Source: Thermomicrobiales bacterium
Lineage (GTDB): Bacteria; Chloroflexota; Limnocylindria; Limnocylindrales; CSP1-4
Direction: 5' to 3'
DNA: 30,926 nucleotides
Assembly (NCBI GenBank): GCA_004525275.1
Contig: SPCO01000001.1
Span: 1-30,926, forward strand
Of this stretch, positions 1,062 to 17,383 are shown one piece after another. Numbering within the stretch: position 1 is the stretch's first letter; the number at the start of each line of letters is the position of its first letter. A program made the translations under genes and the position numbers. The notes below the pieces were generated by a model. The model was not told where the DNA came from. It did not search any database and saw nothing but the letters and a program-made list of their open reading frames with translations.

Positions 1062-3224
1062 CTATCGCCCGCCGCGAACCCTGGGGAGCGGTGGCAGCCG
1101 GTGGCGGCCGTCGATCAGGAAGTGCCGGAACCAGTCCTCCACGACGTGCAGATTCTCGACCCGCCGGAACGGGGTCCCTGAGCGGGTCAACTCGTGGGTC
1201 TCCTCTGGTACTCGGAGGAGCCTGACCGGCCGGCGCATCGAGCGGAGGACGGTGAAGAGGGCCTCTCCCTGGGCGATAGTCGTACGGATATCCCGCTCGG
1301 AGTGCTGGATGAGCAGCGGCGTCCGGATCCGGTCGGCATAGGTGATCGGCGAGATCTCGCGGAAGTACTCGGGATCTCCCCAGGGCGTCGCGTCGAACTC
1401 AAGCTTGGCCCAGTCGCCACCCGAGATATCGCCGGTCGTGAACAGGACGCCCATATCGCTGACCGAACGGCAGGTCATCGCCGCTCGGAATCGGTCATCG
1501 TGACCGATGATCCAGTTCGTGAGGTAGCCCCCGTATGAGCCTCCGGTGACACCCAATCGATCCGGGTCGGCCAGGCCCTCGGCGACAAGCGAATCCACCC
1601 CGGCCAGCACGTCGCGCATCGGGCCCGGACCCCAGTCACGATGGTTCGCGTCGTTGAAACTCTGTCCATAGCCTTCCGAACCACGTGGGTTGCAGTAGAA
1701 CACCCCGATCCCGGCTGCGGCCAGGATCTGGAACTCCCACATCGGCGCCCAGCCATAGAACGCGTGCGGCCCGCCGTGGATCTGGACGACCAGCGGTCGG
1801 GCCCCGCCGGCGACGGGCAGCAGCCAGCCCTGGATGTCGTGGCCGTCGAGGGTCACGTGCCGCTCCACGGGCTCGACGAGCGCGAGATCGGCCATGACGT
1901 CCGCGTTGAGCGCCGTCAGGCGCAGTGGTTTGGATGCGGTCGTCGCCCTGGCCTTCGACTTTCCCGACGCGCTGTCGAGCAGCCACAGGTCGGGCAGCGC
2001 GGTCGCTGAAGAGCGAAGGTAGGCGAGGCGCATGCCGCTCGAGCCCTCTTCGCTCCCTGGAACCGCGTGCCATCCGGAAATGTAGTGGTGACCCTTGGTC
2101 AGTCGCTCCAACCGGCCATCGGCAACGGCGATCCGCCAGAGCTCGTAGGCGCCGTCGATCGGGGCGCTGAAGTGAAGCCCCCGTCCACCCCTCGAAGGAA
2201 TGAGCGTGGCGCCGGCGCTGGGCGCCACGTCGCTGCTCATCGAAGCTCCGGGCATCAGATCGTACTCGGCCGACAGGTTGCGACCGCCGTCCGGTCGCGC
2301 ATCGGATCCGTCGGCGGCGAACAGCCAGATGTCATTGCGACTGCCCGCACCACCTTCGAGCCGGTGACCAAGGGCCGCGATCGCCTGTCCGTCGGGCAGC
2401 CAGGTCGGTGCCGAGAACACCGACCTCGGACCGCTGGTGATCGCCCTGACGCCGCGCTTCCTGACATCCACGACGTACAGGTCGAGACGCTCGGGTCGGA
2501 GGTCCGCATCGCGTCGACGGTTCGAGGCGAACGCGATCGAACGGCCGTCCGGCGACCAGGCGGGCGCCTTATCGGAGACGCGTCCGTCGGTCAGCCTCGA
2601 TGCGCTGCCCGTCGCCACCTCGACGAGCCAGAGATGGCCGATCCGGTCGTAGGTGAAGCCCTCACCGTTGAGCATGTAGTTGAGTCGGTCGATGAACCGA
2701 AAGTCGGATGGCGGCGGTGCGGCGCGATCACGGCTACGCTCGATCCGCCGCAGCCGATCATCCTCGGTCTGGGTCGCTCCGTGCGAGGTGCTTACGACGA
2801 CGAGCCTTGCTCCATCGGGCGACCACTCGAACCCATCGACGCCGCGGGGCAGATCGGTCAGCCGCCGTGCTTCGCCCCCGTCCAGCGGGAGCAGGTAGAC
2901 CTGAGCGCCGTCCTCCCGGTCCTTCGCCCGCCGGTCGGCGTGGGTCGGACCTGCCTCCACGATGGAGCGCCGATCCGAGATGAAGGCAAGCGACTGGCCG
3001 TCCGGGGCGAAGCGCGGGTGCACGTCGTGGTTTGCGCCGAGTGTCAGCTGGCGAGGTTCGGCCTGCCCTTCCGTGTCGACCAGCCACAGGGCGTGACGGT
3101 AGCCGTTCGAGCCCGGGGCCACGGTCTGGAGGGTGACCACGGCCAGACGGCCATCGGGCGACAGCCGCGGCTCAGTCGCGACCCTGAGGCGGTACAGGTC
3201 GTCTGGTCGGGGGGCGCGTGGCAC
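1062..3224 (-). CDS. S9 family (prolyl oligopeptidase/acylaminoacyl) peptidase with N-terminal beta-propeller, 720 aa
   Basis: Repeated WSPDG/FAPDG (PD40-like) blades; IHGGP; nucleophile elbow GGSYGG; catalytic Asp (ERDIR) and His (ETHEL). GGAGG at 3232-3236 is 7 nt before the GTG. No signal peptide visible. Confidence 0.93.
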   Translation of the reverse strand: MPRAPRPDDLYRLRVATEPRLSPDGRLAVVTLQTVAPGSNGYRHALWLVDTEGQAEPRQLTLGANHDVHPRFAPDGQSLAFISDRRSIVEAGPTHADRRAKDREDGAQVYLLPLDGGEARRLTDLPRGVDGFEWSPDGARLVVVSTSHGATQTEDDRLRRIERSRDRAAPPPSDFRFIDRLNYMLNGEGFTYDRIGHLWLVEVATGSASRLTDGRVSDKAPAWSPDGRSIAFASNRRRDADLRPERLDLYVVDVRKRGVRAITSGPRSVFSAPTWLPDGQAIAALGHRLEGGAGSRNDIWLFAADGSDARPDGGRNLSAEYDLMPGASMSSDVAPSAGATLIPSRGGRGLHFSAPIDGAYELWRIAVADGRLERLTKGHHYISGWHAVPGSEEGSSGMRLAYLRSSATALPDLWLLDSASGKSKARATTASKPLRLTALNADVMADLALVEPVERHVTLDGHDIQGWLLPVAGGARPLVVQIHGGPHAFYGWAPMWEFQILAAAGIGVFYCNPRGSEGYGQSFNDANHRDWGPGPMRDVLAGVDSLVAEGLADPDRLGVTGGSYGGYLTNWIIGHDDRFRAAMTCRSVSDMGVLFTTGDISGGDWAKLEFDATPWGDPEYFREISPITYADRIRTPLLIQHSERDIRTTIAQGEALFTVLRSMRRPVRLLRVPEETHELTRSGTPFRRVENLHVVEDWFRHFLIDGRHRLPPLPRVRGGR

Positions 3225-3254
3225 AGGCGATCCTCCATCGGTCGGGACGCTTCC

Positions 3255-3272
3255 AGTCTAGCGGGCTACCAT
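3255..3272. promoter_or_regulatory. Back-to-back divergent -10 elements: TAGACT (minus, 3255-3260, S9 peptidase) and TACCAT (plus, 3267-3272, ligase-like gene)
   Basis: Both match TAnnnT. TACCAT is 9 nt before ATG 3282; TAGACT precedes a short SD-containing leader. Confidence 0.55.
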
Positions 3273-3281
3273 CGGGGGACG

Positions 3282-4019
3282 ATGGCCGACCAGCTCTCGC
3301 TGCTCCTCGAGGCCGACCGACTGCCCGATCTTCCGGACCTGCGGCCGATGCTTCCGCGGTCGTTGCCGGCGCCGTTCGACTCCGATGCGCACCTGTTCGA
3401 GCCATGGTGGGGCGGCGAACGGGCCGTCGTCTCGATCGGACCGGCCGATACCGAAGGGAGTGGACAGGTCGTCATCCGCGATGCCGCGGGCGTTGATCGA
3501 TCCAGCGTGTTTCCCGAATTGGCCGGTCTGGCGGTCCGAGTGGCGGCTCGGTCGGCCATCCTCGACGGCGAGCTCGTCGTCGTTGATCCCGCGGGTCGGG
3601 CGGACGCCGCTGCGCTCCGGCGACGGCTGGCCGGCGAACCCGGGCGACCGGTGGCCTTCCTTGCCTTCGACCTGCTCCATATCGACGGTCGATCGATGCT
3701 GTCGCAACCCCTGGTCCGCCGACGCGAAGCCCTTCGAAAGGTGCTTCGGCCGGGAGACGAGGTCGTGGCCGTGCCGGCCATCGCCACCGAAGGAGTGGCG
3801 CTCTACGACGCCGTCGTCGCGCAGGGCGTGGCCGGGATCCTGGCCCGACAGCGATCGAGCCCGTACCTGCCCGGAGTCCGGAGTCGGTTGTGGCGGTTCA
3901 TCGGCTCGACGCCGAGCGAGCCTGGGCTGGATGCCGTTGGATCGACAGACGACGAACCCAACGCGGGCGCGGGACCGGTCCTGGCTCTGATCAGCCGCCT
4001 GCCGTTCGACGACATCTGA
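3282..4019 (+). CDS. ATP-dependent DNA ligase adenylation-domain homologue (LigD/LigC-like), predicted catalytically inactive, 245 aa, no OB domain
   Basis: C-terminal part of ORF 2067..4019. Ligase landmarks RPML, ILDGELVV (motif III), FLAFDLL (IIIa), PLxxRRExL and SPYxPGxRS are present; motif I reads EPWWGGER, motif IV AGILAR, motif V WRFIG. Confidence 0.85.
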   Translation: MADQLSLLLEADRLPDLPDLRPMLPRSLPAPFDSDAHLFEPWWGGERAVVSIGPADTEGSGQVVIRDAAGVDRSSVFPELAGLAVRVAARSAILDGELVVVDPAGRADAAALRRRLAGEPGRPVAFLAFDLLHIDGRSMLSQPLVRRREALRKVLRPGDEVVAVPAIATEGVALYDAVVAQGVAGILARQRSSPYLPGVRSRLWRFIGSTPSEPGLDAVGSTDDEPNAGAGPVLALISRLPFDDI

Positions 4020-4026
4020 CCCGCGG

Positions 4027-5342
4027 TCAGGCTCGGCGCGCCGCCGTGACAAAGGCTCGAAGCCCCGGACGCTGGCCGTACAGGAGCACCCCGGCAGCGT
4101 ACATCCGGGTCGCGATGACGGCCACGACGCCGATAGCCGCGATCAGCAACCCGATCGATAGGACGAGCTCCCATGGCTCGACCGCGGACACCATCACCCG
4201 GGCAAGCATGACGAATGGACTGAATGGTGGAAGCAGGGAGGCCAAGGTCACGATCGTCCCACTGCCGCCACCGAGCGCGACGATGGCGATCAGGTAACCG
4301 GCCATGGCCACCAGGCTGAGTGGCAGCGACAACGTCTGCAGATCATCCGGCCGGCTGACGAACGAGCCCATCGCGGCGTAGATCAGGGCAAACAGCGCGA
4401 ACCCGAGGAGGAAGAAGAGGCCATACCCGAGCAGCAATCCAGCTGTCAGTCCACCCAGGGGCGCCCCGGAAATCCAGTCGGGCCCCAGCAGGGCCGAGGC
4501 GATCCGATCCTGGAACGCGAGCAGGATCAGCGCCGGCAGGGCGATCATGGCGTATTGGGTCAGACCTGCCGACCCGATACCGACGACCTTGCCGGCCAGC
4601 ATCTGACGTGGGGAGGCGGCGCTGATCATCAGCTCCATGACCCGGCTGCTCTTCTCCGAGGCGACGCCGGTGGCCACCCACATCCCATAGATGATGATCG
4701 AGATCAGCAGCAGGATGACGAAGACGATCCCGAGCAGATATCGACTGGCGGCCTGGCGGATGTCGAGCGGCGCGCCGCCATCCGTCGCGGTATTGATCGA
4801 CTCGACCGTGTAGGTCGGCGTCACGAATGGAGCGAGTGCCCCGCTCGGCACCCTGGAACTCCAGTCGAGGACACCCACGCCGAACGCGGCCACGCTGAGG
4901 ATCTGGCTGCGCGCGCTGGTCGGTCCCTCGGCGGTTCGCAGCCTGACATCGACGCCCCCGTTGGCCTGGCGCTCGACGAGCATGATCCCCGCGACGAGAC
5001 CCCTGGACAGCAGTGCCTCGGTGGTCTCGGGGTCCGAGCCGATCTCGAGCTGGTAGGGCCGCTGCCAGGTCGCGAGATCGACCCCGGCCGGCGGGCTGTT
5101 GAGCAGTGACTCCGCCACGGCGAGGGCCCGCGTGCCGAGCTCGGCGTCGCTCGAAATGACGACCAGCCGAGAGACACTCTGCCGGTCGATCAGCCTGACC
5201 CCGATGGGTGCGATGGCCACCATCATGGCCAGAACCGCGAGCAGGATGGTCGAGACGATGAACAGCGGGCTACGCGTGCGGTCACGATATTCGCGGCGCG
5301 CGATGATGCCGGCGTTGGGCAGCAGCGGGTCGCGACGGCGCA

Positions 5343-5343
<1 letters not shown>
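4027..5343 (-). CDS. ABC-2 type exporter permease (NatB/YhaP-like), 438 aa
   Basis: IARREY N-terminus, TM1, large extracellular loop, EKSSRVMELMISAASPRQMLAGK motif, multi-TM C-terminus; TGATG overlap with the upstream ATPase. Confidence 0.88.
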
Positions 5344-6332: not shown

Positions 6333-8879
6333 TCAGGCGACCCATGTCCGACCGGTGGCTGTGCGCACCACTTCCGCGACCAGGGCCGGTGCCAGCGCGA
6401 TGGCCGCAACGACCGCCCATTCGGAAAGATCGAGCGGCGAAGCCCTGAACGCATCGGCCAGGATCGGAACGACCGGGATCATGGCCTGGACGAGGATCAC
6501 CACGATGCCGGCCAGCAGGAGGAAGAGGTTCGGCGGCAATCGATGGAAGGGGATCCGGAGGCTTCGGTTGGCGTTGGCCCGGACGGCCTGGGCGACGACG
6601 AGGACCGTGTACGCCAGCCACCGGGTGTGGTCGTCCGAGCCCGGGTCGCTGGCCATCACGACCAGCGCGGCGATCGCGCTGAACCCGCCGGCCACCGCGA
6701 TCCGACCAAGCAGGGGGCTGGTCAGAAGCGGCACACCGCGTCGTCTGGGCGGCCGTTGCATGAGGTCGGGCTCGGCCTTCTCCAGCTCGAACGCGACCGA
6801 GGTCGACACGTCGATGAATAACTCGACCCACAGGATCTGAAGCGGAAACAAGGGCTGGCTGAAGCCATACACGGTGGCGATGAGGATGAAACCCAATAAC
6901 GCGACATGGGTGGAGATGATGAAGACGAGACCCTTCTGCACGTTGTCGACGATCCGCCGGCCCTCGGCCAGGCCGTACATCAGGGTGGCAAAGGAGTCGT
7001 CGCCGAGGACCAGATCGGCGGCCTCCTTGGCGACCCCGGTACCGGAGCCCATCGCGACCGCGACATCCGCCCCGTGGAGCGCGGAGGCGTCATTGATGCC
7101 GTCGCCACTGACCGCGACCGTGCGACCGGCCGCGCGGGCCAGACGAACCAGACGCTCTTTCTGATCCGGTGCCGAGCGGGCGACGATCTGGAGGTCGTCC
7201 AGTTCGCTCGTCAGCCGGGCGTCGTCCCAGGCCGCGATCTCCTCGCCGACGACCACCCGGTCACGATCCAATCCGGCGGCAGCAGCGACCGCCCCGGCGG
7301 TCAGCGGGTGATCGCCGGTCACGATGACGACCTCGATACCCGCCCTTCTCGCGGTCTGGAGCGCCTCGCGGATCCCTTCGCGGAGTGGGTCTGCAAAACC
7401 GATCAGGCCTCGGAGCAGCCAGGGTCCGCCCTCGCGGCGCCTCGCCAGGCCGACGAGTCGTTCCCCGGTGGCCGTGCTCGCCTCGACGAGCGCGACCCAG
7501 GCGTTCGCTTCCCGCGGGTCGGGGGCCGCCATGGCCAGGACCTCCTCGGGCGCACCGATCGCCAATTCGTCGATGCCGTCCGGTCCGCGACCCCGAGTGA
7601 TCGACATCCGCCGCCCATCCTCGACCGGGATCGAGCCCAGGAGGTCGGCCGGATCAAGCGACGGATCGCCACCGGCATCCTCGACTGCCCGGATGAGCGC
7701 AGCCGTGAACGACCCCGGCGCCGTGCCTTCGGCGCGCACCCATGCGTCATCCTCGGCACGAAGCCCCTCACCGAGGATCACCAGCCGGGCCGCACCGGAC
7801 AACGTCCCGCTCAGATCACGAACCGAGGCGACGTCCAGCCGATTGCGGGTCAACGTCCCGGTCTTGTCCGTGATGATCAGATCGACCGCGCCGAGCGTCT
7901 CCTCGGCATTGAGCCGCCGGACGAGAACGTCGCGACGAAGGAGCCGATACGCGCCGAGCCCGAGGATGACGGCCAGAAGGACGAGCGGCTCCTCGGGGAT
8001 CGCGGCGATCGCGACGGAGATCCCGGCGAGCAGATTCGCGCCGGCATCCTCACCTCTCGCGAAGCCGATCCCGACGACGTAGATGATGAGTCCGATGGCC
8101 AGAACGAACAGGATCCGGACCAGGCGGTCGAATTCGGCCTGGATCGGAGAGCGACGTCGCTCGACAGTGCCAAGTCCGGTGGCAATCCGACCCACCTCCG
8201 ATGCCCGGCCGGTCGCGATCACGACGCCTTCACCGCGACCGCCCACGACGCTCGTCCCGCCATAGGCCAGAGCCCGTCGATCGGCCAGTGGTGCTGTGGC
8301 TCGGTCGGGCTCCAGGAGCCCGACCTCGGGGATCGATTCGCCGGTCAAGGCGCTCCGATCGATAAGCAGTCGGTCGGCTCGGAGCAGTCGGAGATCGGCG
8401 GGCACGATGTCGCCGGCCCGGAGGAGCACGATGTCGCCCGGGACCAGACCGATCGACGGTACGTCCTCGACCGCCCCGTCGCGTCGGGCCCGGGCCGTTG
8501 GAGCCGACGCCTCGCGAAGGGCGTCCAGCGCTCGCTCGCTCCGAAAACTGGTCACGACGTCGGCGGCGACGATCGGGATGAGCGCGAGCAGGACAAGCAG
8601 CCCATCGCGAATCTCTCCGATCAGGACCGCCAGTACGCCGGAACCGATGAGCAGGATCAGGAACGGCTCTCTGAGCACCCCCAGGATCAATCGCAGGACC
8701 GAGGTCCGCTGCGCTGCTTCAAGCTCGTTCGGCCCCGCCGCTATCGCCCGCCGCGCGACCTCGGACGACGACAGACCGACGGCGCGCTCAACCCGGAACG
8801 CGCGCTCCACCTCGGCCGCGGGTGTTGCGTGGGCCGTCGCCGCGGTGGAGACCCACGACGCCGACTGGTCGGTCGTCAT
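6333..8879 (-). CDS. Cation-transporting P-type ATPase (P2-like), ~848 aa
   Basis: TGES (A domain), DKTGTLT (phospho-Asp338), DPLR, TGD, SGDGIND and C-terminal TM helices. Start set at ATG 8879; the upstream part of the listed ORF is antisense to the DUF971 gene. Confidence 0.92.
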   Translation of the reverse strand: MTTDQSASWVSTAATAHATPAAEVERAFRVERAVGLSSSEVARRAIAAGPNELEAAQRTSVLRLILGVLREPFLILLIGSGVLAVLIGEIRDGLLVLLALIPIVAADVVTSFRSERALDALREASAPTARARRDGAVEDVPSIGLVPGDIVLLRAGDIVPADLRLLRADRLLIDRSALTGESIPEVGLLEPDRATAPLADRRALAYGGTSVVGGRGEGVVIATGRASEVGRIATGLGTVERRRSPIQAEFDRLVRILFVLAIGLIIYVVGIGFARGEDAGANLLAGISVAIAAIPEEPLVLLAVILGLGAYRLLRRDVLVRRLNAEETLGAVDLIITDKTGTLTRNRLDVASVRDLSGTLSGAARLVILGEGLRAEDDAWVRAEGTAPGSFTAALIRAVEDAGGDPSLDPADLLGSIPVEDGRRMSITRGRGPDGIDELAIGAPEEVLAMAAPDPREANAWVALVEASTATGERLVGLARRREGGPWLLRGLIGFADPLREGIREALQTARRAGIEVVIVTGDHPLTAGAVAAAAGLDRDRVVVGEEIAAWDDARLTSELDDLQIVARSAPDQKERLVRLARAAGRTVAVSGDGINDASALHGADVAVAMGSGTGVAKEAADLVLGDDSFATLMYGLAEGRRIVDNVQKGLVFIISTHVALLGFILIATVYGFSQPLFPLQILWVELFIDVSTSVAFELEKAEPDLMQRPPRRRGVPLLTSPLLGRIAVAGGFSAIAALVVMASDPGSDDHTRWLAYTVLVVAQAVRANANRSLRIPFHRLPPNLFLLLAGIVVILVQAMIPVVPILADAFRASPLDLSEWAVVAAIALAPALVAEVVRTATGRTWVA

Positions 8880-8886
8880 ACCGTCA

Positions 8887-8908
8887 ATGATGGCCGAAGG
8901 GGTACGAT
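8887..8908. promoter_or_regulatory. Divergent -10 pair: CATCAT (minus, 8887-8892) and TACGAT (plus, 8903-8908)
   Basis: Each hexamer is exactly 7 nt before its ATG (8879 and 8916). Confidence 0.5.
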
Positions 8909-8915
8909 CGATGTC

Positions 8916-9293
8916 ATGAACGGTACGACGCCGCTGACGATCCATGCTGATCGCGCCGCGGGCAGCCTGATGATCACCTGGGACGATGGCCATACGACCG
9001 AATACGACGCGGTCGCGCTGCGCTGGCTGTGTCCGTGCGCGTTCTGCCGCGGCGAGGCCGGGATGCCGGGCTGGCTGGATAGTGCTCCGACGCTGACCGA
9101 CGAGCAGACCCGACTCGTGGACGTGGCGATGGTCGGCGGCTACGCGATCGCGCCAAGCTGGGCGGACGGTCATCACACGGGCTACTACACGTTCACGATG
9201 CTCCGCGATCGATGCGGTTGCGAAGCGTGCCTCGCCGACAAGGCCGAGGCTGTCGTGATCCCGGCCCCGGACCGTCATGCGGAGCACGCCTGA
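8916..9293 (+). CDS. DUF971 / gamma-butyrobetaine-hydroxylase N-terminal-like protein, 125 aa
   Basis: C-terminal end of ORF 6906..9293. LxIxWxDGH, LRWLCPCAFC, VGGYAI and WADGHHTGYY match the DUF971 pattern. Confidence 0.85.
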   Translation: MNGTTPLTIHADRAAGSLMITWDDGHTTEYDAVALRWLCPCAFCRGEAGMPGWLDSAPTLTDEQTRLVDVAMVGGYAIAPSWADGHHTGYYTFTMLRDRCGCEACLADKAEAVVIPAPDRHAEHA

Positions 9294-9316
9294 CCGCGGG
9301 TCCTCCGTTCGGGCCA

Positions 9317-9325
9317 TGCTATCCT
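9317..9325 (+). promoter_or_regulatory. Extended -10 (TGcTATCCT) upstream of ppk1
   Basis: TGn-TAnnnT, 63 nt upstream of ATG 9389. Confidence 0.5.
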
Positions 9326-9388
9326 CGCTGGCCGGTCCGAACGCCGCATGACACTGACCTACCCGCCGGAGAAAGACCCACGATCCCG

Positions 9389-11562
9389 ATGGCCGCGACC
9401 GATGCCAGGGCACCCGCCGACCCCATAGCGGCTCCGCACGCTCGGCGAGCCAGCCGCCCCGAGGTCGAATTCCCGTACCTCAATCGAGAGCTGTCCTGGC
9501 TCGAGTTCAATGCCCGAGTCCTGCACGAAGCGAAGGACGAACGCAACCCGCTATTGGAGCGGGTGAAGTTCCTGGCCATCTTCGCGGGCAACCTCGACGA
9601 GTTTTTCCAGGTCCGTATCGCCGGCCTGCGCCAGCAGGTCGAGGCCGGAAAGGTCAAGCGATCGCCCGATGGCCGGACCGCCGAGGAACAGCTGGCTGCC
9701 GCGCGCGAGCGGGTCCTCGAGCTGGTCGGCGACCACTCATCGATCTACGTTTCGGTCCGACGGGCGCTCGCCGGCGAGGGCGTCGAATTGTTGGACTACG
9801 CGGCCATCCCGGAACACCACGATTCGCTCCGGCAGCGCTATCTCGATGAGATCTTCCCGGTCCTGACCCCACTCGCCGTCGATCCCGGGCACCCGTTCCC
9901 GTACATCTCGACCTTGAGCCTGTCGATCGCTGTCGGCCTGCGCGACCGCGAGTCGGGGGAACGTGCATTCGCCCGGGTCAAGGTCCCCCAGATCCTGCCC
10001 CGGCTGCTGGAAGTCGGTCCGTCGCAGTTCGTGCTGCTCGATCAGGTCATCGAGGCCAATCTCGACACGCTCTTCAGCGGGATGGAGGTCGAAGAACACC
10101 ACCTCTTCCGGGTCACCCGAAACGCCGATTTCGAGATCGAGGAAGACGAGGCCGATGATCTCCTCCTGGCCATCGAAGAGGAACTTCGGCGGAGACGCTT
10201 TGGCGCCGCGGTCCGACTCGAAGTCGAGCGGTCGATGCCCGAGGCGACCCGCGCCCTGCTCCTGCGCGGTCTTGGCCTTGGCGAGGACGATCTGTACGAC
10301 ATCAGTGGGATGCTCGACCTCACCGGCCTGTGGGCGATCGCGGAGCTCGATCGGCCGGACCTCAAACCCGCGCCGTGGTCGCCGGTGACGCCACCCAGAC
10401 TCGTGCCACATGACGAAGACGAGCCCGCCGATGTCTTTACCGCCATCCGGGCCGGGGACATTCTCGTCCATCATCCGTACGAGTCATTCGTCGCGTCTGT
10501 GGAGCGGTTCATCGCGCAGGCCGCAGACGATCCAGACGTCCTGACGATCAAGCAGACGCTCTATCGAACTTCGGGCGACTCGGCCATCGTCCAGTCGCTC
10601 ATCCGGGCGGCCGAGCGCGGCAAGCAAGTGGTGGTCCTGGTCGAGATCAAGGCCCGCTTCGACGAGGAGGCGAACATCGTCTGGGCGCGCAAGCTGGAGC
10701 GAGCTGGCGCCCATGTCGTCTACGGGCTGGTCGGTCTCAAGACGCATTCGAAGACCCTGCTCGTCGTGCGCCGCGAGGGAACCGGCCTGCGTCGATACGT
10801 GCACATCGGGACGGGCAACTACAACCCAAAGACCGCCCGCCTGTATGTCGACATCGGACTCCTGACCAGCCGGCCGGAGATCGGCGCGGATGTGACCGAC
10901 TTGTTCAACAACCTGACCGGCCTGTCGCGCCAGCGTACGTTCCGGCGCCTGCTCGTCGCGCCGCACAGCCTGCGCTCGCGGTTCCTCGAACTCGTCGAAC
11001 GCGAGATCGGCCATGCCAAGGCCGGTCGACCGGCGCGGATCGTCTTGAAGCTCAACGCCATCGTCGATATCGCGGTCATCGAAGCGCTCTATCGAGCATC
11101 ACAAGCGGGTGTCGATGTCGAACTCATCATCCGCGGCGCCTGTTCCATCCAGCCCGGGCTGCCCGGTGTCTCCGACCGCATCCGGGTCCGCTCGATCATC
11201 GGCGAGTTCCTCGAGCACTCGCGGATCTGGAGCTTTGACAATGGCGGGCAGCGCGACTGGTACATCGGCTCGGCGGACCTGATGGACCGCAATCTCGATC
11301 GGCGGATCGAGGCCGTCGCCCCGGTGGAGGATCATGATGCGCAGACCCGGCTCGCCGAGATCATCGACGTGATGCTCGCGGATGACCGTCGGTCGTGGCA
11401 GCTCCAACCTGATGCGACCTGGGTCCGAACCGAGACGCTTGAAGGGCGGGATGGCACGATCGACACGTTCGAGGTCCTCAAGGAAGACGCCCTGGAGCAC
11501 GGCAGTGTCGCCGGGTCGCCAGCGCCGGTCGGCGCTCCGGCCGGTTCCCTGGACCCACGAGC

Positions 11563-11566
<4 letters not shown>
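9389..11566 (+). CDS. ppk1: Polyphosphate kinase 1, ~725 aa
   Basis: NRELSWLEFNARVL, NLDEFFQVR, VDPGHPFPYIS, LVHHPYESF (phospho-His), ELKARFDE-like VEIKARFDEE, LKTHSK, HIGTGNYN, FLEHSR, IGSADLMDRNLDRRIE. Start ATG 9389 inferred. Confidence 0.97.
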
Positions 11567-13413
<1,847 letters not shown>

Positions 13414-14376
13414 TCAGGCGTGCCAGCCGATGACCAACTCGGCGAGGCGATCGCGCCAGCCGATCCCGACGTGATCGGCCGCGAGAATGGCGCCTTCCCG
13501 GATCCCCGCCTCGGAAACCCGGACCTCATCGATGCCGTAGCGCTCCATGATCGCGTCCATGATCGCCCCGCCGGCGGCGAGGAGCCGGGCGCGGATGGGT
13601 TTGACCAGGTGGCGCTCGGAGATCGTTGCGGCCGACTCCGATTCAAGGATCGCCTGGACGGCCCGCAGCCGCGCCCGGGTCAGCCGGCCATCGAGCGCGG
13701 CCTCCGGCAGGATCTTGAGCAGGTTCGAGGCCGTCCCGGCTACCGCCACGATCTCGTCCGGGCGCGCCGCCGGGGCGTCCGCGATGATCGCTCGGGCCGC
13801 CGCGTGCATCTCGGCGACCTCGGTCGGCGCCGGCGGGTCGTGGCGGACGAACCGGTCGGTCAGGCGAGCCGACCCAAGTTGCAACCCGGCAGCCAGGGCC
13901 GGCCGGATCGGATCGACCACGCAGAATTCTGAACTGCCACCGCCGACATCGACGACGAGCATCTGGTGGGTCGCGGGCAGGCCCTCGGTGACGCCGATGA
14001 GCATGAGGTAGGCCTCCTCCTCATGCGAGAGCACGTGAAGGGCCGAACCCGACGCCACGCCCACTTCCTGGACGATCGTGGCGGCATCGGCAGCCCGCCG
14101 GATCGGCTCGGTGCCGAGGACCGTGACGCTCTCAGCGCCCAGACTGCGGGCGACCTCGGCGTACTGGACCAGTGTGGCCGTCAGCTCCGCCCGCGAATCT
14201 GGGCCAAGGTAGCCGCGCTCCACGACCGCTGAGCCAAGCCCCAGGAAAACCGATTCATCGAGCAGGGGCAAGAGTCGGTGGCCGGCCAGCCCGGCCACCA
14301 GGAGATGGACCGAGTTCGAGCCGATATCGACGGTCGCCCCGACGTGGCGGGTTTCGGTTGTCAGAGCGTCGGACAC
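13414..14376 (-). CDS. ppx: Ppx/GppA family exopolyphosphatase, short form without HD domain, 320 aa
   Basis: DIGSNS, LSHEEEA, DVGGGSSE, LQLGS, AGTASN and GIREG motifs; CAGACT hexamer 6 nt before the GTG. Confidence 0.9.
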   Translation of the reverse strand: MSDALTTETRHVGATVDIGSNSVHLLVAGLAGHRLLPLLDESVFLGLGSAVVERGYLGPDSRAELTATLVQYAEVARSLGAESVTVLGTEPIRRAADAATIVQEVGVASGSALHVLSHEEEAYLMLIGVTEGLPATHQMLVVDVGGGSSEFCVVDPIRPALAAGLQLGSARLTDRFVRHDPPAPTEVAEMHAAARAIIADAPAARPDEIVAVAGTASNLLKILPEAALDGRLTRARLRAVQAILESESAATISERHLVKPIRARLLAAGGAIMDAIMERYGIDEVRVSEAGIREGAILAADHVGIGWRDRLAELVIGWHA

Positions 14377-14431
14377 CAGCCAAGTCTGACACGCTGAGTG
14401 CCGGGTCCGTACGCGACGCGAGATCCATCGC

Positions 14432-14437
14432 TATCCT
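14432..14437 (+). promoter_or_regulatory. Putative -10 element TATCCT of crcB-DUF190
   Basis: TATCCT 9 nt before ATG 14447. Confidence 0.5.
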
Positions 14438-14446
14438 CCTGAGGAC

Positions 14447-14818
14447 ATGGCCCTTATCCTCATCGGCCTTGGCGGTTTCGCCGGGTCGATCTCTCGCTAC
14501 CTCGTCGACGGCTTCGTCACGGACCGGACGGCGGGCGGGTTCCCATGGGGCACCCTCGTGGTCAACGCGACCGGATCGTTCCTGCTCGGTGTGCTCTTCG
14601 CGATGACCGCCGACCGGGCGATTCTGCCAGCTGAGATCCGCGGTCCGCTGATGATCGGGTTCATCGGGGCCTACACGACGTTTTCGACCTACATGCTCGA
14701 GTCCTGGGGGTTGATCGAGAACGGATCCTGGTCGCTCGCCGTCGCGAACCTCGGAGGTTCCATGCTTGTCGGCCTGATCGCTGTGGCCGCGGGCCTGGTC
14801 GTCGGGCGGGCCGTCTGA
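14447..14818 (+). CDS. crcB: Fluoride efflux channel FluC/CrcB, 123 aa
   Basis: GGFAGSISRY, FPWGTLVVNATGSF and GFIGAYTTFST motifs; four hydrophobic helices. Confidence 0.95.
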   Translation: MALILIGLGGFAGSISRYLVDGFVTDRTAGGFPWGTLVVNATGSFLLGVLFAMTADRAILPAEIRGPLMIGFIGAYTTFSTYMLESWGLIENGSWSLAVANLGGSMLVGLIAVAAGLVVGRAV

Positions 14819-15168
14819 TGCGGATCGACGGTCCTTCCCTGCGCGCCCGTATCTACATCGGGGAGGCCGACCATCACGAGGGCAAGCCGCTCTTCCAGGC
14901 GATCGTCGCCCTGCTTCGGGAGCGCAAGGTTGCCGGGGCAACCGTCCTGCGCGGGATCGAAGGCTTCGGAGCCAGCACACATCTTCACACGACGCGTCTG
15001 CTGCGGCTGGCTGAGGATCTGCCGATCGTCATCGAGGTCGTTGACCAGGAAGACCGGCTTCGCGCGTTGCTCCCTGAACTCGACGCCATGGTCGGCGACG
15101 GTCTGATCACGCTCGAGGAGGTCGAGGTCCACACCTACCGCGCGAGCGGGGCGACGACCCGCCACTGA
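14818..15168 (+). CDS. DUF190 (PII-like) protein, 116 aa
   Basis: RIYIGE, GATVLRGIEGFG, DLPIVIEVVD; TGATG coupling to crcB, its usual partner. Confidence 0.9.
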   Translation: MRIDGPSLRARIYIGEADHHEGKPLFQAIVALLRERKVAGATVLRGIEGFGASTHLHTTRLLRLAEDLPIVIEVVDQEDRLRALLPELDAMVGDGLITLEEVEVHTYRASGATTRH

Positions 15169-15221
15169 CGTCTCGCCGACCAGCGTCCGAGGATGGGCGG
15201 GTCGCCTTCGCCCGGGGTCAT

Positions 15222-15276
15222 GTTAATCATCCATTAACCCGGCGCGAAACGTCCGTTGACGGGGCCGTCCGATGGT
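15222..15276 (+). promoter_or_regulatory. Putative PHO box (11-nt-spaced half-sites) and -10 of the pst operon
   Basis: GTTAAT 15222, ATTAAC 15233, GCGAAA 15244 and GTTGAC 15255 are all 11 nt apart; GATGGT lies 10 nt after the last half-site. Confidence 0.6.
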
Positions 15277-15353
15277 TGGGCTGGCCAGTCCTCGGGGACT
15301 GCCCCATGTCGATCGCGTGTCTTGCACACGGCTATCAGGAGGACCGGACTACC

Positions 15354-16367
15354 GTGACGCTATCCAGAAACCGCTGGCTCGGGGCGGTCGCCCTGATCGC
15401 CCTGATCGTGTTGAGCGCCTGTTCCAGCTCTGCGAACACGACCGCGCCAGATTCGACGCCCGGAAGCATCAATGTCTCCGGTTCCTCGACCGTCGAACCG
15501 ATCTCGACCGGTGTCGCGGAGAGGTACAAGCTGGCCAACAGCGGCTTCAACTACAAGATCACCGGACCCGGAACCGGCGATGGCTTCAAGGTCTTCTGCA
15601 CCGGTGAGACCGACATCAGCGATGCCTCGCGGAAGATCAAGGACGAAGAAGCTGCCACCTGCGCGGCCGCGGGCATCGAGTACACCGAGCTGAAGATCGC
15701 CATCGATGGCATGACCGTGATGACCTCGCCGGAGAACAGCGCGGTGACCTGTCTGTCGTTCCCCGACCTGTACGCATTGACCGGACCCGAGTCGACCGGA
15801 TTCGACAACTGGACCGACGCATCGGCGCTGGCCGCGTCGCTCGGTTCGAACACGGTGTTCCCGAATGCCGATCTGTCGATCACCGGGCCGGGTGAGGAGT
15901 CGGGAACCTACGACAGCTACGTCGAGCTCGTCATCACGCCGATCGCATCCAAGATGGATCCGCCGCAGGAGAGCTTCTCGCGCCCCGACTACGTGGCCAG
16001 CGGCAACGACAACGCGATCATCACCGGGGTGGCTGGCTCGCCGACCTCGCTCGGCTGGGTGGGCTTTGCCTTCGCCCAGGAGAACCAGGACAAGATCAAG
16101 GAGCTCGCGCTGGCCAAGGAACCCAACGGGACCTGTATCGTGCCGACCGAGGCCACGATCTCCGATGGGACGTATCCGCTGTCGCGAAGCCTGTACATTT
16201 ACGTCAACAACGCCAAGGCCGCTGAGAACCCGGCGGTGACGGACTACGTCGACTACTACCTTGCAGAAGGGACGATCTCGACGGTCCTGGAGACGGTCCC
16301 GTACGTCAACCTCGCCGCGGACCAGTTGGCCGAGACCCGGGCGACCTGGGAAGCCGCCAAGCCATAG
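15354..16367 (+). CDS. pstS: Phosphate ABC transporter substrate-binding lipoprotein, ~337 aa
   Basis: AGGAGG at 15337-15342 then GTG; lipobox LSAC; SGSSTV, GTGDGF, DASRKIK, ESGTYD and YPLSRSLYIY motifs. Confidence 0.93.
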   Translation: MTLSRNRWLGAVALIALIVLSACSSSANTTAPDSTPGSINVSGSSTVEPISTGVAERYKLANSGFNYKITGPGTGDGFKVFCTGETDISDASRKIKDEEAATCAAAGIEYTELKIAIDGMTVMTSPENSAVTCLSFPDLYALTGPESTGFDNWTDASALAASLGSNTVFPNADLSITGPGEESGTYDSYVELVITPIASKMDPPQESFSRPDYVASGNDNAIITGVAGSPTSLGWVGFAFAQENQDKIKELALAKEPNGTCIVPTEATISDGTYPLSRSLYIYVNNAKAAENPAVTDYVDYYLAEGTISTVLETVPYVNLAADQLAETRATWEAAKP

Positions 16368-16453
16368 TCCTCAGTCGTGGTTCATCAATCCCCGGGAGCC
16401 ATACACGTCTGTGAGACGCATCGGACGATCACGATCGAGCATCAGGTGAACAG

Positions 16454-17383
16454 GTGACCGCGTCGGCAGCCCCAGGCGGCAGTCTGTTGCGCGGCAGCCG
16501 GCGCCGGCGACGCAATGAAGCAGCGGTGCGCGGCGCGCTCTTTGCGGCCGCGGCACTGTCGATCCTGATCAGCGTCGGGATCGTCCTTTCGCTCGTCTTC
16601 GAGGCTGTTTCGTTCCTCTCCCAGATCGAACTCTCGCAACTCGTCGCCCCAGGCTGGTTCCCACGGCGCGGGATGTTCTCGATCGCGACCGTGGTCGTCG
16701 GGACCCTGATCGTCACCGTCATCGCGATGACCATCGCGGCCCCGGTCGGTCTGGGTAGCGCGATCTACCTGTCCGAATATGCGACGCCGAGGGTCCGCGG
16801 GATCGTCAAACCGATCCTCGAGATCCTCGCCGGCATCCCGAGCGTCGTGCTCGGCTTCTTCGCCTTGACCTGGATCAGCCCCAACATCGTGCAGAACCTG
16901 TTCCCGGAAGCAAAAGGCTTCAGCCTCATGGCCGCCGGCATCGGGGTCGGCGTCCTGACCATCCCGCTGGTGGCGTCGATCTCGGAGGACGCGATGCGGG
17001 CGGTCCCGAACGCTCTGCGCGAGGCGTCGTACGGACTCGGATCGCGCCGGCTCACCACGTCGGTTCGGGTGATCGTGCCGGCGGCGATCTCCGGCATCGT
17101 GGCCGCACTGATCCTGGCAACATCACGGGCCATCGGCGAAACGATGGTCGTGGCGCTCGCCGCCGGGGCCAGTGGCGGCTCATTGTTCACGGTCGACCCG
17201 CTCGGGCCAGGCCAGACCCTGACGGCCGCCATGGCATCGTTGGCCGCAGGCAGCGACCAGGTCGCCGGGGCCAACGCGGCCTTTCAGAGCCTGTTCTTCC
17301 TCGGGCTCCTGTTGTTCCTCATGACGCTCGTGTTGAACGTGATCGCGGACACGTTCGTCCGGCGCACCCGTCAGAAGTATTGA
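16454..17383 (+). CDS. pstC: Phosphate ABC transporter permease, 309 aa
   Basis: GTL, AIYLSEYA, LEILAGIPSVVLG, EDAMRAVP, REASYGLG, RAIGETM. Confidence 0.95.
   Translation: MTASAAPGGSLLRGSRRRRRNEAAVRGALFAAAALSILISVGIVLSLVFEAVSFLSQIELSQLVAPGWFPRRGMFSIATVVVGTLIVTVIAMTIAAPVGLGSAIYLSEYATPRVRGIVKPILEILAGIPSVVLGFFALTWISPNIVQNLFPEAKGFSLMAAGIGVGVLTIPLVASISEDAMRAVPNALREASYGLGSRRLTTSVRVIVPAAISGIVAALILATSRAIGETMVVALAAGASGGSLFTVDPLGPGQTLTAAMASLAAGSDQVAGANAAFQSLFFLGLLLFLMTLVLNVIADTFVRRTRQKY

Follow-up and report, generated by a model that had tools for sequence, protein, structure and literature searches.

Bacterial non-homologous end joining (NHEJ) is regarded as a two-protein system of Ku and LigD. In the ligase domain of Mycobacterium tuberculosis LigD, the nucleophilic lysine is K481, E613 coordinates the catalytic metal, and K635 and K637 stabilise the transition state; E613A abolishes nick sealing, as K637A abolishes sealing, while the ribose is held by R486 and E530 and the adenine by E479 and K618 (PMC8656161). 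A second set of described systems centers on the sliding clamp DnaN, whose cleft is a shared, competitive binding site engaged by the hexameric motif QLxLxL (PMC4564189); the consensus for clamp-binding peptides is QLxLF or QLxLxL (PMC4564189, PMC3836487). Such hexapeptides occur at the N-terminus of Escherichia coli Hda (QLSLPL) and of Caulobacter HdaA (4-QFKLPL-9) (PMC3836487). Here, we describe a gene at positions 3282–4019 of a 30,926-nucleotide stretch of a soil/sediment Chloroflexota genome of 67% GC (assembly GCA_004525275.1, contig SPCO01000001.1, positions 1 to 30,926; henceforth termed the window) that encodes a LigD-like ligase domain without the catalytic lysines, preceded by a candidate clamp-binding hexapeptide. 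We refer to its product as the pseudo-ligase and leverage comparative sequence analysis, structure prediction, and genome context to ask what a ligase domain of this type might do.

Results

The open reading frame (ORF) of the pseudo-ligase is unbroken from its ATG start to its TGA stop and encodes 245 amino acids. An initial annotation made from the sequence alone had proposed a DNA ligase fold without an oligonucleotide-binding (OB) domain, and profile searches agree with both statements. Pfam assigns residues 36–204 to PF01068 (DNA_ligase_A_M; E 2.6e-16), the same search returned no match to the OB domain family PF04679 (DNA_ligase_A_C), and just 39 residues, mostly disordered in the AlphaFold2 (AF2) model, follow motif V. 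All NCBIfam ligase models score the protein far under their cut-offs (99.9 bits for TIGR02779, NHEJ_ligase_lig, against a cut-off of 227.75), and the best of them are LigD types. By sequence, the closest solved structure is the ligase domain of M. tuberculosis LigD (1vs0/6nhx; E 2e-16, 28% identity). The AF2 model, with a mean predicted local distance difference test score (pLDDT) of 88.2 and a predicted template-modelling score (pTM) of 0.84, was matched by Foldseek to the nucleotidyltransferase (NTase) domains of ATP-dependent DNA ligases at query-normalised scores (TMq) of 0.63–0.68, with a root-mean-square deviation of 2.1 Å over 196 columns for 6nhx. The features of the gene are as follows.

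3282–4019, plus strand: pseudo-ligase gene, 245 codons plus TGA (Pfam, alignment, AF2, Foldseek)
3291–3308, plus strand: N-terminal hexapeptide QLSLLL, residues 4–9, a candidate beta-clamp-binding motif of the QLxLxL type
3399–3422, plus strand: motif I, degenerate, EPWWGGER; Lys replaced by Trp, Asp by Gly, Arg retained (alignment to LigD K481/D483/R486)
3564–3581, plus strand: motif III, DGELVV; ribose-contacting Glu retained (E97, corresponding to LigD E530)
3666–3677, plus strand: motif IIIa, FDLL (LigD alignment)
3831–3848, plus strand: motif IV, degenerate, AGILAR; metal-binding Glu replaced by Ala, adenine-contacting Lys by Arg
3891–3905, plus strand: motif V, degenerate, WRFIG; both Lys gone
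3906–3971, plus strand: variable acidic linker, residues 209–230, occupying the place of the lost OB domain
3975–4007, plus strand: C-terminal peptide PVLALISRLPF, residues 232–242, a candidate second docking-type motif

Alignment to M. tuberculosis LigD (1vs0/6nhx) provided the residue equivalences. It places the altered motif I exactly where the initial annotation had it, and likewise upholds its reading of motifs IV and V as degenerate and of motifs III and IIIa as kept.

LigD K481: W42 (codon TGG, 3405–3407), lost
LigD D483: G44, lost
LigD R486: R47, kept
LigD R501 (motif Ia Arg): A68, lost
LigD E530: E97, kept
LigD E613: A184, lost
LigD K618: R189, Lys to Arg
LigD R629: R200, kept
LigD K635: F206, lost
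LigD K637: G208, lost

E40 of the pseudo-ligase additionally corresponds to LigD E479. Taken with the published residue roles, these equivalences divide the putative active site in two: as judged from the alignment, the phosphoryl-transfer half, which holds the phosphate and metal ligands, is dismantled, whereas the adenosine half (E40, R47, E97, R189, and R200) is kept. The losses comprise the lysine nucleophile, the Asp of motif I, the Arg of motif Ia, the Glu of motif IV, the motif V lysine pair, and the OB domain; formation of a ligase-AMP intermediate and sealing of DNA should therefore be impossible for this protein by the known mechanism. The initial annotation had also pointed to the presence of only one lysine. 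The count is correct (K153), but it is not special: neighboring proteins of this genome contain 0.5–2% lysine, the low count is partly compositional, and one lysine per protein is ordinary in such a lysine-poor proteome. We therefore discount it as evidence in itself.

To describe the conservation of the gene, we compiled 81 orthologues, consisting of the window and the best 80 of 277 GTDB species representatives that encode a relative; these best 80 are labelled Limnocylindria/Limnocylindrales or generic Chloroflexota. The reading frame is intact in every one of them, with lengths of 243–280 amino acids. Nei-Gojobori ratios of nonsynonymous to synonymous substitution (omega) are 0.05–0.17 in the most closely related pairs and have a median of 0.23 across all pairs; they differ by region: 0.21 for residues 1–22, 0.18 for the core, 0.61 for the linker, and 0.15 for the C-terminal peptide. 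Protein identity between species (67–79%) is similar to that of neighboring housekeeping genes. Of 44 genomes of the window's family, 34 contain the gene (E <= 1e-30), as against none of 105 genomes of other families of the class; this class sample comprises genomes of at least 80% completeness, and the class tallies, including the class-wide Ku total given below, contain three unpublished genomes (G122, G156, and G165), on which no other result depends. Contigs from independent soil/sediment DNA runs cover positions 2900–3516 and 2900–3448, including motif I, with 0 differences. The pseudo-ligase is a conserved, selectively maintained gene under purifying selection across this Limnocylindria family, which bears out the earlier view of a repurposed pseudoenzyme rather than a decaying gene.

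The altered motifs are themselves conserved. FEPWWGG is present in 76 of the 81 species-level orthologues, motif V reads LWR[FY][VI]xx, D95, G96, and E97 are retained in at least 79 of 81, D130 is invariant, and 29 orthologues contain no lysine whatever. Among cluster representatives down to ca. 40% identity, motif I becomes FEPxWGGxR: the Asp-to-Gly exchange is fixed, and the position of the nucleophile is occupied by W, A, S, R, V, I, G, T, L, or C but never by lysine, relatives at 40–65% identity included. The expectation that PWWxG would be conserved is thus borne out among close orthologues and not beyond them, where the Trp is not fixed, and close relatives do not have the canonical KxDG, the finding that would have spoken for recent loss. 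A role of Trp as a specific functional replacement of the lysine is rejected, as the position varies freely in distant members. E40, E97, and R200 also vary in distant family members, and the wider family alignment shows no alternative invariant His, Cys, or Ser at the active site. A protein database search returned more than 2,000 matches to the pseudo-ligase, the top 120 at 71–81% identity. As an observation on public records, members of this dead family are annotated as 'bifunctional non-homologous end joining protein LigD' or 'ATP-dependent DNA ligase', a systematic over-annotation.

The N-terminus preceding the NTase core follows the family pattern M-x-D-Q-L-S-L-x-L-[ED]. A hexapeptide Q[LF]x[LF]x[LF] occupies residues 4–9 in 80 of 81 orthologues, several of which read exactly QLSLPL, and a clamp-type hexapeptide persists in relatives at 40–50% identity. 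Residues 1–10 are disordered in the AF2 model (pLDDT 58). The lineage uses canonical clamp motifs, since QLSLF and QLPLF are present in Y-family polymerases of the genus. For a complex prediction, the host's own dnaN could not serve because it is split over two contig ends, with residues 1–135 on one and 90–372 on the other (C167:51-404 and C83; L102 and L103). We instead combined the pseudo-ligase with two copies of the 372-residue DnaN from a same-genus genome, which is 90–91% identical to the host's own fragments. The prediction reached interaction prediction scores from aligned errors (ipSAE) of 0.65, 0.67, and 0.66, compared with 0.02 for the best control; in a calibration on single-chain pairs, 51 of the 78 solved complexes reached the 0.66 mark, as did 2 of the 108 mismatched pairs. 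Residues 1–10, 12–13, 15–16, and 18 form the confident predicted interface on the side of the pseudo-ligase, opposite DnaN residues 150–155, 172–177, 239–249, 322–324, 348–350, and 364–371, which correspond to the canonical peptide cleft between domains II and III and to the C-terminal tail. To the model, the N-terminal peptide looks like a clamp-binding motif, which suggests docking at the level of a prediction.

At the other end of the protein, the linker has pLDDT values below 50 for residues 214–227 and differs in length among orthologues. It leads to a C-terminal peptide with the consensus PVLALI-x-RLP[LF][DE], which is conserved down to ca. 40% identity and for which AF2 places a short helix at residues 231–238. 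LxxLP[FL]-like ends also occur on OB-bearing relatives that are encoded beside Ku/LigD.

To place the pseudo-ligase among related ligases, we built a tree of 96 NTase domains, 32 rows of which make up the pseudo-ligase clade. The pseudo-ligases form a single clade (support of 98 in the Shimodaira-Hasegawa-like approximate likelihood ratio test, SH-aLRT) with no lysine-bearing member, and in the same tree the motif I lysine was lost at least five more times elsewhere among LigD-like cluster representatives. The basal clade member P0168 (362 amino acids) has the N-terminus QLTLQL, a motif I of FEPSWDGLR in which the lysine is replaced by Ser, and a degenerate OB domain (PF04679, E 1.2e-3) followed by a C-terminal LLALLQRLPL peptide. 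Its gene adjoins DeoC, as in the window, lacks an S9 peptidase neighbor, and ends 5 nt before a full LigD gene of PE-Lig-OB-PrimPol architecture. Further lysine-less OB-bearing relatives, P0196 and P0198, are encoded between Ku and LigD, and the gene immediately after Ku in another case encodes the active relative P0190, whose N-terminus carries DQLQIEL. Adjacency to Ku and/or LigD was encountered for relatives only (loci L110, L112, L123, and L126). From these data, we infer that the lineage originated among ligase paralogues encoded in Ku/LigD operons and that it has preserved the terminal peptides of these proteins.

Operons with the order Ku, lysine-less OB-bearing LigD-like protein, and LigD, or with the lysine-less protein followed by LigD, were noted as an observation in their own right at L110:2980-6252, L126:6137-10763, and L123:1585-5476.

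The window itself contains neither Ku nor LigD, as the initial annotation had stated, and neither gene was found at orthologous loci of the window's family. Elsewhere in the host genome, Ku is located on contig C8, and LigD was not found in the assembly, which is 66% complete. Besides Ku, the assembly holds a Lig1-like ligase with an intact motif lysine (KYDGIR) and two pseudo-ligases. A same-genus genome encodes a canonical LigD near Ku, a LigC-like and a Lig1-like protein, and a second, different lysine-less ligase-like gene; its LigD and LigC read KWDGYR and KWDGFR, with the motif lysines intact. The second lysine-less ligase-like protein of the host, P0121 (229 amino acids; contig C152, L003:1474-2163, minus strand), has EPLWVGVR as motif I and DGYL as motif III, matches PF01068 only at E 2e-5, and is encoded 19 nt upstream of a GT2-like gene of 455 amino acids; an orthologue at 62% identity is present in the same-genus genome (L120).

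Locally, the pseudo-ligase gene is flanked by a divergent S9 peptidase gene on its 5' side (1062–3224, minus strand) and by a convergent ABC-2 permease gene on its 3' side (4027–5343, minus strand). The gene order in the window's family is DeoC, the divergent S9 peptidase, the pseudo-ligase, and the convergent ABC-2 gene with its ATPase. The divergent S9 peptidase gene, with an intergenic gap of 50–100 nt, is retained even beside a family member of 42% identity. It was undetected upstream at 11 of 80 orthologous loci, some of them on short contigs; at least six of these (L039, L061, L076, L078, L094, and L099) have ample DNA on that side, where DeoC is the immediate neighbor. The S9-less loci still hold the pseudo-ligase and its own upstream box.

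The gap between the divergent genes contains two promoter-like features.

3244–3272, plus strand: conserved promoter-like element GGGACG, 17-nt spacer, TACCAT (alignment of 81 upstream regions)
3260–3255, minus strand: TAGACT, a -10-like box facing the divergent S9 peptidase gene

Alignment of the 70 nt upstream of the 81 orthologues revealed a near-invariant GCGG(G/T)CTACCATCG; the last 30 nt before the gene hardly vary between species, and TACCAT and TAGACT form conserved back-to-back -10-like boxes between the divergent gene pair. In nearly all orthologues, TACCAT ends 9 nt before the ATG, which suggests that the mRNA may be leaderless or carry a very short leader. The initial annotation had described an intact ORF with its own promoter; the ORF is indeed intact, while a generic scan found neither a sigma-70 promoter nor a terminator at the gene, so that the promoter function of the conserved element is only inferred. 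Counts of the upstream 14-mer in four genomes equalled those of a reversed-pattern control, and no copy was present at the Ku contig C8 or near the Ku-LigD region of G010. A shared regulatory box or regulon is therefore not indicated.

Farther downstream, a P-type cation ATPase gene and a polyphosphate/phosphate cluster (window 9212–17383) were noted.

6333–9413, minus strand: P-type cation ATPase
9212–11566: ppk1, part of the polyphosphate/phosphate cluster
11563–13413: CYTH-CHAD, part of the cluster
13414–14376, minus strand: Ppx/GppA, part of the cluster
15276–17383: PstS-like and PstC-like genes, part of the cluster

Discussion

In the reading we favor, the pseudo-ligase is a descendant of a stand-alone LigD-type ligase that is tethered to the clamp and assists end joining or nick repair without catalysis of its own; we put the probability of this reading at roughly one half. 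The protein probably acts as an accessory at clamp-loaded DNA because its lineage appears to descend from paralogues of Ku/LigD operons and to have kept their terminal peptides, and a connection to NHEJ or repair is favored since the nearest longer relatives adjoin Ku and/or LigD. The initial annotation had left the role broad, as a nick or end binder, a nucleotide sensor, or an NHEJ modulator; the hexapeptide, the C-terminal peptide, and the Ku/LigD context of relatives narrow it to such an accessory. Mechanistically, the disordered N-terminus would insert QLSLLL into the hydrophobic cleft of DnaN, as Hda and translesion polymerases do, and thereby tether the globular domain to clamp-loaded DNA. 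The C-terminal peptide on its flexible linker could then recruit, or compete for, a second partner, with Ku or LigD as the obvious candidates. The protein would perform no chemistry. As an adaptor or regulator, it might connect the clamp with end joining or nick repair, or it might control the access of true ligases. Because the adenosine contacts are kept, a nucleotide or a 5'-adenylated end might still be bound non-covalently.

Several observations weigh against this interpretation. The docking comes from one model, and its passing score may reflect memory of solved clamp-peptide complexes. In the same prediction with two DnaN copies, the second clamp protomer offered no confident position for the C-terminal peptide. 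The pseudo-ligase is acidic (pI about 4.9) with a near-neutral core, which does not favor strong DNA binding by the domain alone. The gene does not lie beside Ku or LigD in its own genome or family, where the conserved neighbors are the S9 peptidase and the ABC-2 exporter. Ku is present in all 34 window-family genomes with the gene, and three of the 10 without the gene also lack Ku, but these are kin and not independent; as 141 of the 151 genomes of the class have Ku, making it nearly universal, the co-occurrence carries little information. Finally, RNA evidence consists of two contigs of low depth, from two metatranscriptome runs, that overlap the 3' end of the gene, one of which may be the convergent ABC-2 transcript; they are weak evidence of transcription and no proof of expression.

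A wider proposal builds on the clamp-tethered accessory, and we offer it tentatively, as something possible that we would not yet expect to hold: NHEJ in Chloroflexota and other soil bacteria might have a third, non-enzymatic part made up of dead-ligase paralogues that arose repeatedly from LigD-type ligases, of which the OB-less Limnocylindria protein would be the one that links repair to the clamp through its Hda-like N-terminal hexapeptide.

Among the competing explanations, the most credible, though in our view unlikely, is a decoy or competitive inhibitor, in which the dead domain would occupy recruitment sites on Ku, LigD, or the clamp and restrain ligation or end joining, for example during growth; the two terminal peptides would be those through which these partners recruited the ancestral ligase. 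The types of N- and C-terminal peptide are common to active and lysine-less ligases of Ku/LigD operons, and the clamp cleft, which the model predicts to be occupied, is a shared and competitive site (PMC4564189). Nothing in the data separates inhibition from recruitment, however, and the strong conservation of the core, adenosine contacts included, exceeds what a mere peptide carrier would need.

That same conservation lends itself to a further reading, which we rank lower and consider doubtful, namely that the protein is a nucleotide or adenylate sensor. Through non-covalent binding of ATP, AMP, NAD-derived ligands, or a DNA end with a 5'-adenylate in its pocket, the protein would signal the energy state or flag abortive ligation intermediates at the clamp. 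E40, R47, E97, R189, and R200, the counterparts of LigD E479, R486, E530, K618, and R629, are conserved, and only the phosphate and metal ligands are gone; yet three of the five (E40, E97, and R200) vary in distant members, and Trp or another residue at the lysine position may fill the phosphate site.

Improbable in our judgment is a function unrelated to DNA, with the pseudo-ligase as a partner, substrate, or regulator of the divergent S9 peptidase or the ABC-2 exporter. The conserved divergent arrangement, kept even at the 42%-identical member, and the back-to-back -10-like boxes would fit this idea. Functional coupling to the peptidase is nevertheless weakened by the 11 of 80 loci, some on short contigs, at which S9 was undetected upstream while the pseudo-ligase and its upstream box persist; the basal clade member lacks S9 and abuts LigD, and fold and clamp motif point to DNA.

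We regard as very improbable an enzyme with non-canonical chemistry that uses a nucleophile other than lysine or transfers non-covalently. The protein does keep the fold and parts of the nucleotide pocket, but more than a third of the orthologues (29/81) are lysine-free, the metal-binding Glu/Asp and transition-state lysines are replaced by Ala, Gly, and Phe, motif VI, which step 1 requires, is missing together with the OB domain, and the wider family offers no invariant His, Cys, or Ser at the site. A recent pseudogene or a sequencing or assembly error, for which only the lost catalytic residues speak, is rejected given intact frames in 81/81 species, omega well below 1, identical sequence in independent metagenomes, and conservation of the altered motifs.

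Ligase reviews and full-text literature searches yielded no dedicated catalytically dead ligase paralogue and no clamp-binding ATP-dependent bacterial ligase, and the literature searched holds no description of the lysine-less OB-bearing LigD-like paralogues of Ku-LigD operons. If the clamp-tethered accessory reading is true, a dead ligase domain that selection maintains and that docks on the clamp through a peptide would add a new type to the known clamp clients. It would also be a candidate for an accessory factor in bacterial end joining or nick repair. The repeated loss of the motif I lysine in LigD-like paralogues, several of which lie inside Ku-LigD operons, suggests that repair may be regulated or scaffolded in a general way that has been overlooked. 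The findings also serve as a warning about annotation pipelines that label dead proteins as 'LigD' or 'ATP-dependent DNA ligase'.

Comparison with known systems

The best match in both sequence and structure is the LIG domain of LigD (M. tuberculosis Rv0938, residues ca. 449–759; 1VS0, 6NHX, and 6NHZ). The two share the motif order I, III, IIIa, IV, V, an SPY.PG.RS..W block, and the adenosine contacts. The pseudo-ligase differs in having no lysine nucleophile, motif I Asp, motif IV Glu, motif V lysines, or OB domain, in carrying the N-terminal clamp-type hexapeptide and the C-terminal peptide, and in lacking a fusion to Pol or PE domains.

With Hda and HdaA, the pseudo-ligase has in common the type of hexapeptide, its position at residues 4–9, and a disordered N-terminus, and the same clamp cleft is predicted as the binding site. 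In contrast, the globular domain of Hda/HdaA is an AAA+ domain, whereas that of the pseudo-ligase has the unrelated ligase NTase fold, and its clamp binding is a prediction.

Closer in kind are the lysine-less OB-bearing LigD-like paralogues P0196, P0198, and P0168, which resemble the pseudo-ligase in the loss of motif I and in their terminal peptides. They keep an OB domain, sometimes a degenerate one, and adjoin Ku/LigD, while the protein of the window has a disordered linker instead and is encoded away from Ku and LigD.

Eukaryotic DNA ligase IV has a catalysis-independent structural role in NHEJ synapsis and thus provides a functional parallel for a ligase body that contributes to end joining without ligating. 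It is, however, an active enzyme with BRCT/XRCC4 interactions, whereas the pseudo-ligase would be a dedicated dead paralogue, and the homology between the two is confined to the NTase fold.

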